Notes: generated by a model not told the origin, from the sequence alone. A stretch of 64,000 bases of DNA from an uncultured archaeon (GCA_964471215.1 CAYYFC010000001.1:1615-65614), one strand, 5' to 3'; shown: positions 21,548 to 63,710, counted from the stretch's first letter. A program made the numbers and translations.

Positions 21548-21756
21548 AACCCTACATAATTTCCAGACAATTTAAAGTTTAGGGTTTTTAAAATATGAGA
21601 AATATATATTTTTATTTTTTTATTAATGTGCTACAGGATTAGTCGATCTCAAATGGTATCGTAGTTTTTTATCTTAAACATGTATATGAGAAATTTTAGA
21701 TAATTTTTTGGACTATTCACAGATTAGAATTAGAGATATTTAAGGAGCTATGCAAA

Positions 21757-21765
21757 TTTTTAAAT
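21757..21765 (+). promoter_or_regulatory. TATA-like box (TTTTAAATA) about 25 nt upstream of structured-RNA candidate copy A
   Basis: This AT-rich octamer matches the archaeal TATA consensus. Its spacing to the first conserved block (GCCATCAG at 21785) is about 24-27 nt. An equivalent box occurs at the same spacing in copy B. Confidence 0.45.
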
Positions 21766-21781
21766 ACCTTTTCAATTTAGA

Positions 21782-21938
21782 GGGGCCATCAGCTCATAAG
21801 ACGGCGTTACATTTAAGGCTGGTTACGTGGTGCCAGCCAACTTAGCTCTATGTGAAGTGCTGATTCATGAAGCACTAAGGGAGAAGCCCGTGCAAGCTTC
21901 TAAAATATCTATAGTTGATAATGCACGGACAACCACGT
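21782..21938 (+). ncRNA. Candidate structured small RNA, copy A (class unknown)
   Basis: The segment is locally GC-rich in a 0.7-kb AT-rich spacer. It forms stems GCCATC/GACGGC, GGCTGG/CCAGCC (21817-21838), AGTGCT/AGCACT (21856-21876) and CCGTGCA/TGCACGG (21888-21928). The 3' ACCACGT (21932-21938) is complementary to loop ACGTGGT (21826-21832). A paralog at 52316-52478 shows compensatory stem changes. Confidence 0.55.
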
Positions 21939-22264
21939 GTACTCTCTGGCATATAAACAATCCTCCATCAATGTATACTCCATCTCATGCATATTTGAAG
22001 ACATGTGTAAATAATTTTATAGAATTTATTTGTATATATTATAATCTAATATATTTTTAAGTCCTCTGATGTATGAAAAATTCGAGAATGTATTGATAAG
22101 ATAGCATGAATTGTGCGAATAATGATGCTTAGAGTTTTTAAACCAATATATTATCGAAGGAGTTTTTTACTCATAAAAATGTTTCTGTAAAAATAGAAGG
22201 ATCCCATTATGAGATGAGAATCCCTTGATCGAATGATTTATTAATTCTAAGGACTATTATCACT

Positions 22265-23011
22265 ATGATGAAACTAGAGAGATGTCAAACAGGGATCCCG
22301 GGATTTGACGAGCTGTGCGAAGGAGGATTGATAAGGGATAGGAGTTATCTCCTGTCCGGTGTATCTGGAAGTGGAAAGACCATATTCGCCTTACAGTTCT
22401 TAGTTGAAGGAGCATTAAAGTTTAAGGAACCGGGAATATTCATAGCAACAGAAGAAAGACCTCAGCACATAAGAGAGCACGCATGGTCTTTTGGATGGGA
22501 ACTCGAAAGACTTGAGGATGAAAACATGCTTGCAATAGTCGATGCCACTTCGACAAAAATAGGTTTGCCCAGTGATGAGAAGTACGTGGACATAAGACCA
22601 TTCGACACTCGCTCATTACTCGATCAGATAATAAATATACAGGATGAAATCGGTGCCAGAAGAGCTGTTCTGGACTCAACGACATCTATTGGATTTGCAA
22701 TCAACGATATCTCGAAGTTCAGAGTTGAGCTATTAAAAATATCAACAACTATGGAAGTACTCGGACTAACATCGATTTTAACATGCGAAATAGTTGAGGG
22801 AGAGCATGCATATTCGAGGTTTGGCGTCGAAAACTTCGTCACGGAGGGTACGATAGTTCTATATTACACAAGGGCAGAGAATGTCAGAGTTAGGAGCTTA
22901 GAAATTATAAAGATGAGGGGAACAAATCACAGTAAGAAGATACATCCATTCGAGATAACAAGCAACGGAATAATTGTTCACGCAAAGGAGGAGATATATC
23001 CAGGTTTTTGA
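22265..23011 (+). CDS. Single-domain KaiC/RadA-like RecA-superfamily ATPase
   Basis: 248 aa. It has TGIPGFDELCEGGL, Walker A SGVSGSGKTIFALQF, Walker B-like AVLDS and a C-terminal LEIIKMRGTNHS motif typical of KaiC-like proteins. A TATA-like TTTATTAATT lies about 25 nt upstream of the ATG, so the transcript may be leaderless. Confidence 0.8.
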   Translation: MMKLERCQTGIPGFDELCEGGLIRDRSYLLSGVSGSGKTIFALQFLVEGALKFKEPGIFIATEERPQHIREHAWSFGWELERLEDENMLAIVDATSTKIGLPSDEKYVDIRPFDTRSLLDQIINIQDEIGARRAVLDSTTSIGFAINDISKFRVELLKISTTMEVLGLTSILTCEIVEGEHAYSRFGVENFVTEGTIVLYYTRAENVRVRSLEIIKMRGTNHSKKIHPFEITSNGIIVHAKEEIYPGF

Positions 23012-51336: not shown

Positions 51337-51813
51337 CTAAGATGATTTGAATATATCAAACAGCACTATCCTCTCCCTAATTAAAAGTGGCAGTTTTCCT
51401 ATACCGACTATCCTCAACTCCTCATCGCTTATATCAAAGAACTCCTTTATTCTTTCAATTTTCTTATCGTCAATTTTCAAAACCTTTTTTTCTTTAAACC
51501 CCAACTCCTTTAAACTTTCAAGACACTCGTCGTCGAGCAAAACAGCTACTATTTCATTCCTCCCACTCTTAGGTCCTATCTTTATGGCCTCATTTATCTG
51601 TCTTCTTGCCGCAACGTATAGTAAGATCTCCATTACCAATGTTCTCGCCACTCTTCTGTTCTCATTCCAAGCTTTTATAGCTTTCTTAACAGCAAATTCA
51701 ACATGATCTATATCCACAACGTAATTTGCATCTATTAAAACGACGTTACAGTTTAACCTCTTAAGAAAATCGCTTACAGATTTTATCTCAATCTCTCCCT
51801 CAACTATTCTCAT
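51337..51813 (-). CDS. cgi121: KEOPS complex subunit Cgi121
   Basis: 158 aa. VVLIDANYVVDIDHVEFAVKKAIKAW..RVARTLVMEILLYVAARRQI is typical of archaeal Cgi121. Confidence 0.7.
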   Translation of the reverse strand: MRIVEGEIEIKSVSDFLKRLNCNVVLIDANYVVDIDHVEFAVKKAIKAWNENRRVARTLVMEILLYVAARRQINEAIKIGPKSGRNEIVAVLLDDECLESLKELGFKEKKVLKIDDKKIERIKEFFDISDEELRIVGIGKLPLLIRERIVLFDIFKSS

Positions 51814-52287
51814 ATGACCCTCATAAGTGCCTCCATCTTTATACTTCTATCGGTTAAATCGTATCTGAGCATTGCTTTTGGGACTAGTCCTCTTTTCAGC
51901 TTTACGACTTTTAATCTCCTCTGGATTTCATTTTCAGTTTCATGTATGTCCAGTTCTATTACACAGTCGGCTATTGCCTTTATTATATTTTTTAATTAGT
52001 TATCCTTTTGACATCATGGTTAGAACTACGGAATCCGTTCTCTTCACATTCATGGATATGTCCCTGAGAACATCGATTATTTCCATATAATCATAGTCGA
52101 ATACAAGGGTGTTCAAGCTGTTTATTATAGCCCTATCGAAGTCATCATCCATGATCCTTAACCTTATAAACCTTAAAGGGTCGTGCTTTGTCTTTCTCAA
52201 AACCGATCTTATGTCTCCTTTACCATTTTTGGACTATTCACTTGTTTGAGTATTTGAGTGATTTTGGAAACTATGGGAACTTAAAAC

Positions 52288-52296
52288 TAATATAAA
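52288..52296 (+). promoter_or_regulatory. TATA-like box (TAATATAAA) about 25 nt upstream of structured-RNA candidate copy B
   Basis: It has the same spacing to the conserved GCCATCAG block (52320) as in copy A. Confidence 0.45.
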
Positions 52297-52315
52297 CTAC
52301 TCACATACTTACTTT

Positions 52316-52478
52316 GGATGCCATCAGGCTTTGCCGATGACGGTGTAATCCCGTAACCCGTACCCTGTGGTGTGCGGGGATGTAGCTCCCAATGAACCAC
52401 CGATGGAGATGAGGTGGCTGAGGGAAAAGCCCGTGCAAGTTCCTATAACTTAAATACCAGATAATGCACGGGCGACCA
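52316..52478 (+). ncRNA. Candidate structured small RNA, copy B (class unknown), located inside and antisense to the KaiC-like pseudogene
   Basis: It has the conserved blocks GCCATCAG, GACGGTGTAA, CTGAGGGAAAAGCCCGTGCAAG and GATAATGCACGGGCGACCAC. Its stems are CCCGTA/TGCGGG (52357-52378), CCACC/GGTGG (52397-52417) and GCCCGTGCA/TGCACGGGC. The stems covary with copy A. Confidence 0.55.
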
Positions 52479-52745
52479 CTCATGAGATCTATTATATCTA
52501 TCTTGTTGAATTCTTCCTTCAATTCAAAATAAACCTTTATGTTCTGAATTAAATGCTCCTTTGTATCGTCATACTTCCAGTGCGAAATGGAAAGGAAAAA
52601 ACGTCTGCTCTAGCTCCTGGTCCCTCAAGTAGGAGAACAAGGCTACCAGCTGGAAAACTCCATCCAACTGGGAATCAAGGGCAGTAATCCCGGTTTTAAA
52701 TTTTTTCATTAAAAGTTATTAAAACGTTTCTCTCAAATAAATGAT

Positions 52746-56935: not shown

Positions 56936-57070
56936 TGGGGCCGGTGGGATTTGAACCCACGACCAGCGGGTCTCTTCGGTCAGAGCTCCAACGGGTCATC
57001 ACATCTCAGGAGACCCGTCTCTCATCACACCGCTGGAGCCCGCCGCGCTTCCTGGCTGCGCCACGACCCC
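56936..57070 (-). tRNA. tRNA-Trp (anticodon CCA) interrupted by a 61-nt intron at the canonical 37/38 position
   Basis: Exon 1 (57070-57033) reads GGGGTCGTGGCGCAGCCAGGAAGCGCGGCGGGCTCCAG. Exon 2 (56971-56936) reads ACCCGCTGGTCGTGGGTTCAAATCCCACCGGCCCCA. Once the intron is removed the cloverleaf is regular. Confidence 0.9.
56972..57032 (-). ncRNA. Box C/D guide RNA carried within the tRNA-Trp intron
   Basis: The intron reads CGG-TGTGATGA(C)-GAGACGGGTCTC-CTGA(D')-GA-TGTGATGA(C')-CCCGTTGGAGCT-CTGA(D)-CCGAAGAG. Both spacers are 12 nt. They are complementary to the tRNA's own anticodon-arm sequences (GAGACCCG, and GCTCCAGCGG with one G-U pair). Confidence 0.85.
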
Positions 57071-63369: not shown

Positions 63370-63710
63370 TGTATGCGGGTGATAAGAGCAATGTTTCAAG
63401 CCCGCTAGGCATACTCTAGATCTGACCTCCCCCTGCCTTAAGGGGCGGAGGTTCCCCATAGGGGAACATGCTCGCATCTGCCTCACGGCAGGTCATTGCC
63501 TTCGGTTTGTGTCATCAGGTTATGTCAAAGCAAACCTCTACAACATTTTCAATATAATTATGACACGAACATATCTCCTATCCCCCTAATTCATCTCCGC
63601 CCCAAAGCTTCCTTAGCGACGGTTGTGAGCCTTGTGCCGCTGGGTTCGAACGCCACCCATGACCCTATGGGATGAGCCGTAAGGCAACTCTCTAGGCGAG
63701 GTGATCCTAT
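63370..63710. other. Locally GC-rich, hairpin-dense non-coding island (candidate structured RNA or RNAs, or a decayed element); strand and class undetermined
   Basis: No ORF of 60 aa or more occurs between 63081 and 64000. Several stems stand out against AT-rich flanks. These include GCGGG/CCCGC (63375-63405), ACCTCC/GGAGGT (63425-63452) and TTCCCC-ATA-GGGGAA (63452-63466). Also present are CTGCC-TCAC-GGCAG (63478-63491), GCC-GTAA-GGC (63676-63685), and the 9-nt long-range complement GGGGCGGAG (63442-63450) / CTCCGCCCC (63595-63603). Confidence 0.3.

Follow-up and report, generated by a model that had tools for sequence, protein, structure and literature searches.

Two protein-less repeats in an archaeal genome are very probably IS607-family derivatives that carry a TnpB omega-RNA

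We analysed a 64,000-nt (64 kb) stretch of DNA from an uncultured archaeon (GCA_964471215.1 CAYYFC010000001.1:1615-65614), hereafter the window, which holds two copies of a short element on its + strand: copy A at 21705-21936 and copy B at 52226-52479. Both are very probably non-autonomous, protein-less derivatives, similar to miniature inverted-repeat transposable elements (MITEs), of an archaeal IS607-family element encoding tnpA and tnpB, and they carry the omega-RNA of TnpB. The evidence for this lies in the homology of the copies to both ends of such elements, in their boundaries, in the structure of the RNA and in the insertion of copy B into a gene. The structured RNA is real and is of a known kind, a TnpB omega-RNA on a non-autonomous transposon derivative, in a new family and a new archaeal host context; whether the copies function in this genome today is an even call.

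The copies came to attention through a preliminary description, made from the window sequence, which proposed a functional RNA family. Reading and aligning both regions, we found the shared blocks to be as described there. The 16-mer TTTTTGGACTATTCAC occurs exactly twice in the window (21705 and 52226, + strand), against 0.04 occurrences expected by chance. Two hairpins do exchange their sequences between the copies while keeping their form: the stem of hairpin 2 reads GGCTGG/CCAGCC in copy A but CCCGTA/TGCGGG in copy B and closes, in either case, a 10-nt loop with GTGGTG at its end, and hairpin 3 is AGTGCT/AGCACT in copy A and CCACC/GGTGG in copy B, with loops GATTCATGA and GATGGAGATGA. Both copies end in ACCAC, complementary to the GTGGT of loop 2, and the pseudoknot proposed from this pairing is possible in every homologue. 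A shared TATA-like box about 25 nt upstream of the first block, also proposed, was not found: the sequence there is unrelated flank, which upstream of copy B is a decayed ATPase gene, and the conserved TATA boxes (21759-21766 and 52290-52296) are internal to the copies, where they precede the GCCATCAG block by about 25 nt. Overlooked until now were a fourth helix, GCCCGTGCA/TGCACGGRC, a helix CUCCC/GGGAG around hairpin 3, and an inverted repeat of 20-30 nt between the left part of the element and the AT-rich loop of helix 4.

Relatives were found by scanning one genome per species with the pattern RAGGGARAAGCCCGTGCAAG, which returned 15 archaeal loci and three chance bacterial matches; the conserved block gave no match in viral contigs. 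The bins that hold the archaeal loci carry the labels Thermoprotei, Desulfurococcales, Staphylothermus, 'Woesearchaeota' and 'Methanobacteriota'; six of the loci belong to a single metagenome-assembled genome (MAG), and many are situated at the ends of contigs. One of the loci (L008, 'Woesearchaeota' bin) is the same as one in a 'Thermoproteales' MAG (L014), which suggests an inconsistency of binning or labelling. Nine copies, both window copies included, consist of the RNA alone, preceded by GACTATTCRCTTRTTTGAGTAYTTAGG...TATTTTGGAAA and an AT-rich TATA region. At five loci (L004, L007, L013, L017 and L021) the RNA overlies the 3' end of a long open reading frame (ORF), in which ...FKCRRCGFTFNAQYVACLNLFSRSNDGIVAIRSGR...REKPVQ corresponds to the 5' half of the RNA. 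This ORF encodes TnpB, matching NCBIfam NF040570 with 106 bits (cutoff 100) and Pfam PF07282, and its nearest solved structures are those of Cas12f. The product of the preceding gene, a serine recombinase of 205 aa, scores 196 bits (cutoff 110) with NF033518, the model of the IS607 family transposase; resolvase and HTH_17 domains match in the tnpA of full-length relatives, and a serine-recombinase tnpA adjoins tnpB wherever this was checked (L007, L013, L017, L045 and L047).

A metagenome protein scan gave mostly close relatives, and more distant omega-RNAs were reached by way of protein homologues, which form at least 173 TnpB clusters. Metagenomes contributed thirteen further tnpB-linked copies in all. 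The 18 tnpB-linked relatives, from Thermoprotei-type archaeal MAGs and vent metagenomes, carry an RNA of about 160 nt at the 3' end of tnpB, covering its last 55 or so codons and extending about 70 nt beyond them, as far as ...GGCAACCAC, the point at which the copies cease to be homologous. Because it overlies the end of tnpB and runs to the right end of the element, the RNA has the position of a TnpB omega-RNA. Homology halts at ACCAC in all copies, and the flanks beyond all differ. Full-length and standalone forms occur together in one MAG (CBDUMD01), which has the full-length element L013 and at least four standalone copies. In L007 (3628-5058) tnpB has no stop codon inside the element, and the ORF runs past the right end into the flank, giving 476 aa where relatives have about 440; at L045 (1-436, - strand) a second, different tnpB of 477 aa lies head to head with the IS607 element, elements here being clustered or nested.

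The standalone copies match the full-length elements at the left end as well. Upstream of tnpA the full-length elements read GACTATTCRCTTAYTTGAGTACTTAG...TTTTAAATA..(SD)..ATG, where SD is the Shine-Dalgarno sequence, and this left end is the first 60-90 nt of the standalone copies. Since both ends match, the standalone copies are made up of the left end, the tnpA promoter and the omega-RNA/right end of a full-length element; they are internally deleted, 232-260 bp long, and have no ORF. Like MITEs, they are short and non-coding, retain both ends of an autonomous element, and occur in several copies per genome at different loci. By tblastn the window copies keep the last 50 or so tnpB codons as a frame-broken remnant (TnpB residues 403-448 in copy B). 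We also considered a coding explanation for the conserved sequence and rejected it, as the standalone copies break the tnpB frame and have no ORF in common.

In copy B, homology with seven other standalone copies begins at GACTATT and stops at ACCAC; the TTTTTG that precedes the left end (52226-52231) is common to copies A and B and is found in no other copy. The left-end terminal block GACTATTCAC (52232-52241, + strand; 21711-21720 in copy A) also opens the left end upstream of tnpA in L007, L013, L017, L027 and L036. The internal TATA box of copy B, ATATAAA on the + strand, is predicted to be the former tnpA promoter, and its offset from the left end resembles that of TTTAAATA upstream of tnpA; this offset, about 50-65 nt, is similar in standalone copies and full-length elements. 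In archaea the TATA box usually lies about 26 nt from the transcription start.

The inverted repeat is imperfect, 20-32 nt long, and pairs the left part with the AT-rich loop of helix 4. It measures 32 nt at 81% in L012, 29 nt at 83% in L010, 22 nt at 82% in copy A (21728-21749 with 21895-21916) and 21 nt at 81% in the full-length L007; in copy B its left arm (52250-52282) falls into two segments, 52250-52262 and 52272-52282, complementary to 52445-52457 and 52437-52447. The repeat is subterminal and covaries between lineages. We suggest that it provides binding sites for the transposase TnpA, and that the AT-rich 'loop' of helix 4 persists because it carries these putative sites. IS607 elements are usually described as being without terminal inverted repeats. 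Judged from sequence, then, the first block and the AT-rich part of the element are features of the DNA: the left end, transposase-site-like repeats and a tnpA promoter.

The GC-rich 160 nt that follow behave as an RNA. A covariance model was built from 13 sequences, and with filters off it found only copy B (52318-52479, 168.8 bits) and copy A (21783-21936, 115.9 bits) in the whole window, the next best match having 13 bits. Outside the window the model also recovered every relative, among them 11 tnpB-linked copies from the metagenome scan and four RNAs from elements whose TnpBs are 58-63% identical. Covariation statistics were computed over 28 distinct sequences with 500 shuffles and with control partners slid along the alignment. 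Paired bases fill 94.8% of cells, against 34-51% with slid partners, 17 of the 31 pairs carry changes on both sides, and none of the 500 shuffles reaches any of five measures, which bears out the selection at the RNA level that had been proposed from two copies. Compensatory changes affect 7 of 7 pairs in helix 2, 5 of 5 in helix 3, 4 of 9 in helix 4 and 1 of 5 in the enclosing helix CUCCC/GGGAG. Helix 3 exists in four unrelated sequences (CCACC/GGUGG, AGUGCU/AGCACU, GCGCU/GGCGC and CCUGC/GCAGG). The alignment was fitted to the model, which favours structure; RNAalifold, run on an independent MAFFT alignment, recovers helix 2, helix 4, the enclosing helix and part of helix 3. The eight non-coding standalone copies are free of coding constraint because they do not keep the tnpB frame, and analysed by themselves they still have 92% of cells paired and ten pairs with double changes (0 of 500 shuffles as high). 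Frequent G-U pairs place the RNA on the + strand. Folding energies of single sequences are unremarkable (z = -1.98 and -0.34), so that the support comes from comparison between sequences and not from thermodynamics.

In copy B the scaffold spans 52320-52479 (+ strand). Helix 2 pairs 52357-52363 with 52372-52378 around a loop containing the pseudoknot arm GUGGU (52367-52371), and is followed by the hairpin 3 module (52386-52426) and by helix 4, GCCCGUGCA/UGCACGGGC (52429-52473), whose arms are fully complementary, whose AT-rich loop contains the right arm of the inverted repeat, and whose compensatory changes come from more distant relatives. The 3' arm of the putative pseudoknot, ACCAC (52475-52479), forms the last bases of the element. 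Copy A belongs to a diverged sub-lineage. Its scaffold (21785-21936, + strand) has helix 1 at 21785-21790/21800-21805, helix 2 at 21817-21823/21832-21838 with GUGGU at 21827-21831, the hairpin 3 module at 21846-21883, helix 4 at 21886-21894/21922-21930 and ACCAC at 21932-21936. In the tnpB-linked copies (L004, L007, L013, L017 and L022-L032; for example L007 4772-4830) the 5' domain, some 30 nt upstream of where the model matches, is a long hairpin that shows compensatory changes and reads CUCCCGCU-cc-GAUGACGGC-loop-GCCAUCAGG-AGCGGGAG. Standalone copies keep GCCAUCAGG and have GAUGACGGC downstream of it, so that the order of the inner strands is reversed, and in single-sequence folding their helix 1 has competing folds.

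Neither copy matches any Rfam family at gathering score. In Rfam 15, searched at gathering score and at E up to 10 with both copies and one full-length relative, nothing meaningful appeared, the best match being the C/D small RNA sR10 (13.3 bits, E 0.74, gathering score 45). Likenesses to RNase P RNA, signal recognition particle RNA, riboswitches and group II intron domain V, noted from sequence, were dropped once the linkage to tnpB was seen. Of the functional RNA family first proposed, a structured RNA under selection stands; it is not a new free-standing RNA gene family, being the omega-RNA and right end of an IS607 element. Identification as a fragment of a known element, which the preliminary description had named as an outcome that would count against it if conservation were explained at the DNA level, has therefore come about in part, and the stems are still explained at the RNA level.

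Hairpin 3 and its enclosing helix form a module whose sequence pattern resembles a kink-turn (K-turn) with a K-loop stacked on top of it; K-loops are motifs of the C'/D' type that have a loop in place of stem I (PMC8413462). The K-loop likeness noted earlier for the two copies extends across the relatives as a conserved sequence pattern: hairpin 3 reads stem-(G/A)A-N2-5-NNU-GA-stem in every sequence, with G1b in 25/25, A2b in 25/25, A1n in 24/24 and U at L3 in 24/25. Between the CUCCC/GGGAG helix and hairpin 3 the 5' strand has GAUGA and the 3' strand CU(G/A)A, in the manner of a box C/D K-turn (G1b 21/24, A2b 24/24, A1n 25/25, L3 = U 23/24), and the layout agrees with that of the standard K-turn (PMC5061560). 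The module consensus is 5'-CUCCC-GAU-GA-N-CCACC-GA-N2-5-GAU-GA-GGUGG-CU-GA-GGGAG-3', and its signature positions are kept in 25 distinct sequences. In copy B (+ strand) it comprises the helix CUCCC/GGGAA (52386-52390/52422-52426), a box C-like AAUGA (52391-52395), helix 3 CCACC/GGUGG (52397-52401/52413-52417), the K-loop-like GA-UGGA-GAU-GA (52402-52412) and a box D-like CUGA (52418-52421). Both patterns persist where the sequence of helix 3 is wholly different (copy A, L044 and L046). In tnpB-linked copies the same bases also encode D-E...M-R-W-L-R-E.

Unlike canonical K-turns and K-loops, the module in some sequences has A in place of G at position 2n (11 of 25 sequences in the K-turn, where 14 have G, and 5 of 24 in the K-loop). 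A solved structure shows L7Ae from Archaeoglobus in complex with a K-turn that has A at 2n (PMC3985660), and RNase P RNA contains modules of two K-turns to which L7Ae binds (PMC5499556). Our literature search found no link between L7Ae or K-turns and TnpB omega-RNAs. From the sequence pattern we offer, as a tentative proposal that we think rather less probable than its opposite, that the box C/D-like K-turn stacked under the K-loop recruits L7Ae, possibly in two copies, that L7Ae may thus be an integral host protein of the TnpB ribonucleoprotein (RNP), and that the protein-less copies could be promoter-driven, guide-only modules served in trans.

Copy B lies inside a gene. HisI homologues place the window in the Archaeoglobales (80-84% identity to Archaeoglobus profundus, Ferroglobus and Geoglobus), and six loci of related Archaeoglobales have the order cgi121 (- strand), a KaiC-like ATPase gene of 231-238 aa (- strand) and hisI (+ strand), with about 50 nt between the last two. 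This KaiC/RecA-like ATPase is intact in those six loci, whereas in the window copy B divides what is now a frameshifted pseudogene. With the unbroken orthologues of L038, L041 and L043 as queries, tblastn finds two pieces in different frames, both on the - strand: the C-terminal part (residues about 100-238) at 51813-52221 and the frameshifted N-terminal part (residues 1 to about 92) at 52472-52709. Because the pieces, 52709-52472 and 52221-51813, flank copy B and the gene is unbroken in the relatives, copy B is an insertion, for which the related loci represent empty sites. The pseudogene is too diverged from these for the junction to be fixed to the nucleotide. Neither copy, at its own locus, has an intact gene around it. 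Two contigs from the same organism in other samples (L002 and L003) break inside the element, and contigs of several assemblies end inside it or at its edge in L006, L014, L015 and L019 as well, as is typical where a multicopy repeat disrupts assembly. A paralogous KaiC-like gene lies at 22265-23011, 330 nt downstream of copy A.

These observations suggest the following course of events. An internal deletion would have removed tnpA and about 390 tnpB codons and so brought the left end, with its tnpA promoter, up to the final 160 bp or so of the element, which encode the scaffold of the TnpB omega-RNA (also termed reRNA). The former tnpA TATA box would start transcription at about GCCAUCAG, the RNA would fold into helices 1 to 4 and a pseudoknot between the GUGGU of the helix 2 loop and the last five bases, and the transcript would continue into flanking DNA, taking up 16-20 nt as a guide. 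A full-length element could supply TnpB in trans, to be bound to the standalone RNA, and TnpA, also in trans, could recognise the left end and the subterminal inverted repeats and excise or move the element. TnpB with the omega-RNA would then cut the resealed empty site, and recombination with a sister copy would restore the element. The hairpins would differ between copies A and B because these descend from separate sub-lineages in which the structure of the omega-RNA was selected for.

The guide of copy B is predicted to be the flanking DNA TCATGAGATCTATTATATCT (52480-52499, + strand), as homology ends at 52479 and TnpB guides derive from the flank beside the right end, and the predicted target of its RNA is a transposon-adjacent motif (TAM) followed by TCATGAGATC... 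That of copy A would be GTGTACTCTCTGGCATATAA (21937-21956, + strand), next to the end of homology at 21936 and unique in the window. No second target of either guide was found within the window. A 16-nt guide of copy B (52480-52495) has six partial matches there with 2-3 mismatches, against 1.8 expected; all are AT-rich, and they are probably compositional. All 13 left flanks have a purine at position -1, but they are not rich in G; no TAM of the AGGAG/GAGGG type is visible in them, and no target-site duplication was seen.

Several observations weigh against the account given above. Apart from the two remnants, tblastn detects no tnpA or tnpB in the 64-kb window (a weak match at 25048-24875 lies inside an HdrA-like Fe-S protein and is due to chance), and no Archaeoglobales appear among the sources of the named close TnpB homologues; for these reasons the partner in trans is unproven in this genome, and the copies may be orphans. 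The pseudoknot can pair in 97.9% of cells and is invariant, so that it shows no covariation. A single simple deletion does not explain the strand order of helix 1 in the standalone copies, because that order is opposite to the one in tnpB-linked copies. The promoter, and the start at about 52320 in copy B, are predicted from motif and spacing, and no conserved TAM can be read from the 13 left flanks beyond the purine at -1. Copy A, in addition, has a C-A mismatch in helix 4 and a weakened enclosing helix, and its score is the lowest among complete standalone copies.

Some of these points also fit a reading in which the copies are inert relics, decaying IS607 remnants of no present function whose structure is inherited and not maintained. 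The missing tnpA and tnpB and the mismatched, low-scoring copy A would be expected of such relics, and relatives in decay do exist: in L021 (6794-7733, from a 'Methanobacteriota' MAG) tnpB is frameshifted, the helix 4 loop has lost 20 nt and ACUAC takes the place of ACCAC, and L047 (2222-2391), its tnpB intact, has mismatches in helices 2 and 4 and GAUGG in the K-turn. Against this, nine standalone copies have one and the same architecture of left end, TATA box and scaffold, so that it is this unit as such that has spread; the non-coding copies, too, show covariation in their stems; and copy B keeps every helix while the ATPase gene around it is frameshifted and of low identity. We consider inert relics rather less likely than not.

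The remaining explanations fare worse. An independent family of host small-RNA genes, encoding a structured, L7Ae-binding RNA with a cellular role unrelated to transposition, would account for the TATA box of each copy, the location between genes or in a pseudogene, the conserved K-turn/K-loop signature and the failure to match Rfam, but it already fails on homology, the copies matching, over their whole length, both ends of tnpA-tnpB elements; they are, moreover, multicopy, situated at varied loci and contig ends in distantly related archaea, and in the case of copy B they have destroyed a gene, all of which makes such a family quite improbable. Still less can be said for an IS200/IS605-type palindrome-associated transposable element (PATE) moved by a Y1 (HUH) transposase. 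PATEs bearing omega-RNAs are a described precedent, but the transposase linked to our elements at five loci is a serine recombinase that fits the IS607 model, and their ends have a long subterminal inverted repeat and not the small end hairpins of IS200/IS605, so that we regard this origin as very improbable. That the RNA is a box C/D or H/ACA modification guide is scarcely credible: the motifs GAUGA...CUGA and GA...GAUGA are present and sR10 is matched weakly, but far under its gathering score, the box spacers are 4-6 nt long and paired with one another where a free guide of about 12 nt would be needed, there is no pseudouridylation pocket, and no ACA lies 3' of copy B.

Read as a TnpB omega-RNA, the structure has close parallels. 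That of ISDra2 from Deinococcus radiodurans likewise overlaps the 3' end of tnpB and ends at the right end of the element, with the adjacent flank as its guide (PMC10097598, PMC8612924). Its cryo-electron microscopy structure has a pseudoknot whose 5' arm belongs to the loop closed by the first stem and whose 3' arm, immediately preceded by a hairpin, stands directly before the guide (PMC10097598); our RNA has several stems and a putative pseudoknot of the same topology, again with a hairpin directly before the 3' arm. It differs in having no sequence similarity to the ISDra2 RNA and no Rfam family, in belonging to IS607 and not IS200/IS605 elements and to archaeal thermophile hosts, in the additional K-turn/K-loop-like module, and in that the window RNA stands alone behind what would be its own promoter and is not cut from tnpB mRNA.

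With the IS607 TnpB systems, among them RAGATH-18-derived reRNAs (PMC11061315) and CboIStron (10.1101/2023.11.20.567912), our elements have in common the gene order tnpA-tnpB with a serine recombinase encoded by tnpA, the position of the omega-RNA at the right end and the lack of a visible target-site duplication, and restorative homing would be the expected role. In both IS200/IS605 and IS607 elements the guide taken from the flank lets TnpB cut the donor site resealed after excision, and recombination restores the element. Unlike those IS607 systems, ours have no Rfam match (which would cover RAGATH-18 if it is in release 15), no G-rich flanks or TAM of the type given above, and no intron. 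Protein-less PATE-like derivatives of IS200/IS605 that encode omega-RNAs served in trans have been described in Geobacillus stearothermophilus (PMC10055086), and like the standalone copies they keep both ends, have no ORF and retain the omega-RNA for a TnpB made elsewhere. The copies described here come instead from an IS607 parent with a serine recombinase, in an archaeal host; their putative tnpA promoter leads straight into the scaffold, and the ends have a subterminal inverted repeat of 20-30 bp.

The hairpin 3 module can be compared with the box C/D K-turn and C'/D' K-loop (PMC8413462, PMC5061560), with which it has in common, as a sequence pattern, a canonical stem, tandem G-A/A-G pairs (GAUGA...CUGA) and a bulge of 3 nt whose last base is U. 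Two such motifs within one short hairpin recall the double K-turn of euryarchaeal RNase P RNA (PMC5499556), the second motif (GA...GAUGA) being closed by a loop in our case. Unlike the box C/D and RNase P modules it lies inside the scaffold of a transposon guide RNA, and its spacers are too short for the guiding of methylation.

As a result of this analysis, two apparent novel RNA genes become annotated mobile elements, which is a warning for anyone who searches the AT-rich genomes of thermophiles for RNA genes by their GC content, and an archaeal, IS607-derived counterpart of omega-RNA-bearing PATEs is documented. The covariation data yield a secondary-structure model for an omega-RNA family absent from Rfam. 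A guide RNA that has no nuclease gene and would have a direct promoter offers a natural example of a guide combined with a nuclease in trans, an arrangement thought to precede CRISPR-like systems. Should the hairpin 3 module indeed bind L7Ae, a host protein would for the first time have been proposed as cofactor of a TnpB RNP, and there would be a possible handle for engineering thermostable compact editors. Copy B, finally, illustrates a concrete cost to the host, the destruction of a KaiC-like ATPase gene.

Two further RNAs were noted in the window. An HgcC-family match at 63409-63538 (- strand) falls exactly at the Rfam gathering score (50.0 bits) and has several non-canonical pairs, making it borderline. 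An intron-containing tRNA at 56936-57070 (- strand) was found by Rfam and missed by ARAGORN, and its 65-nt intron (56978-57032) is a box C/D small RNA, Rfam sR3, with 59 bits; a tRNA intron serving as a box C/D small RNA is known for archaeal tRNA-Trp.

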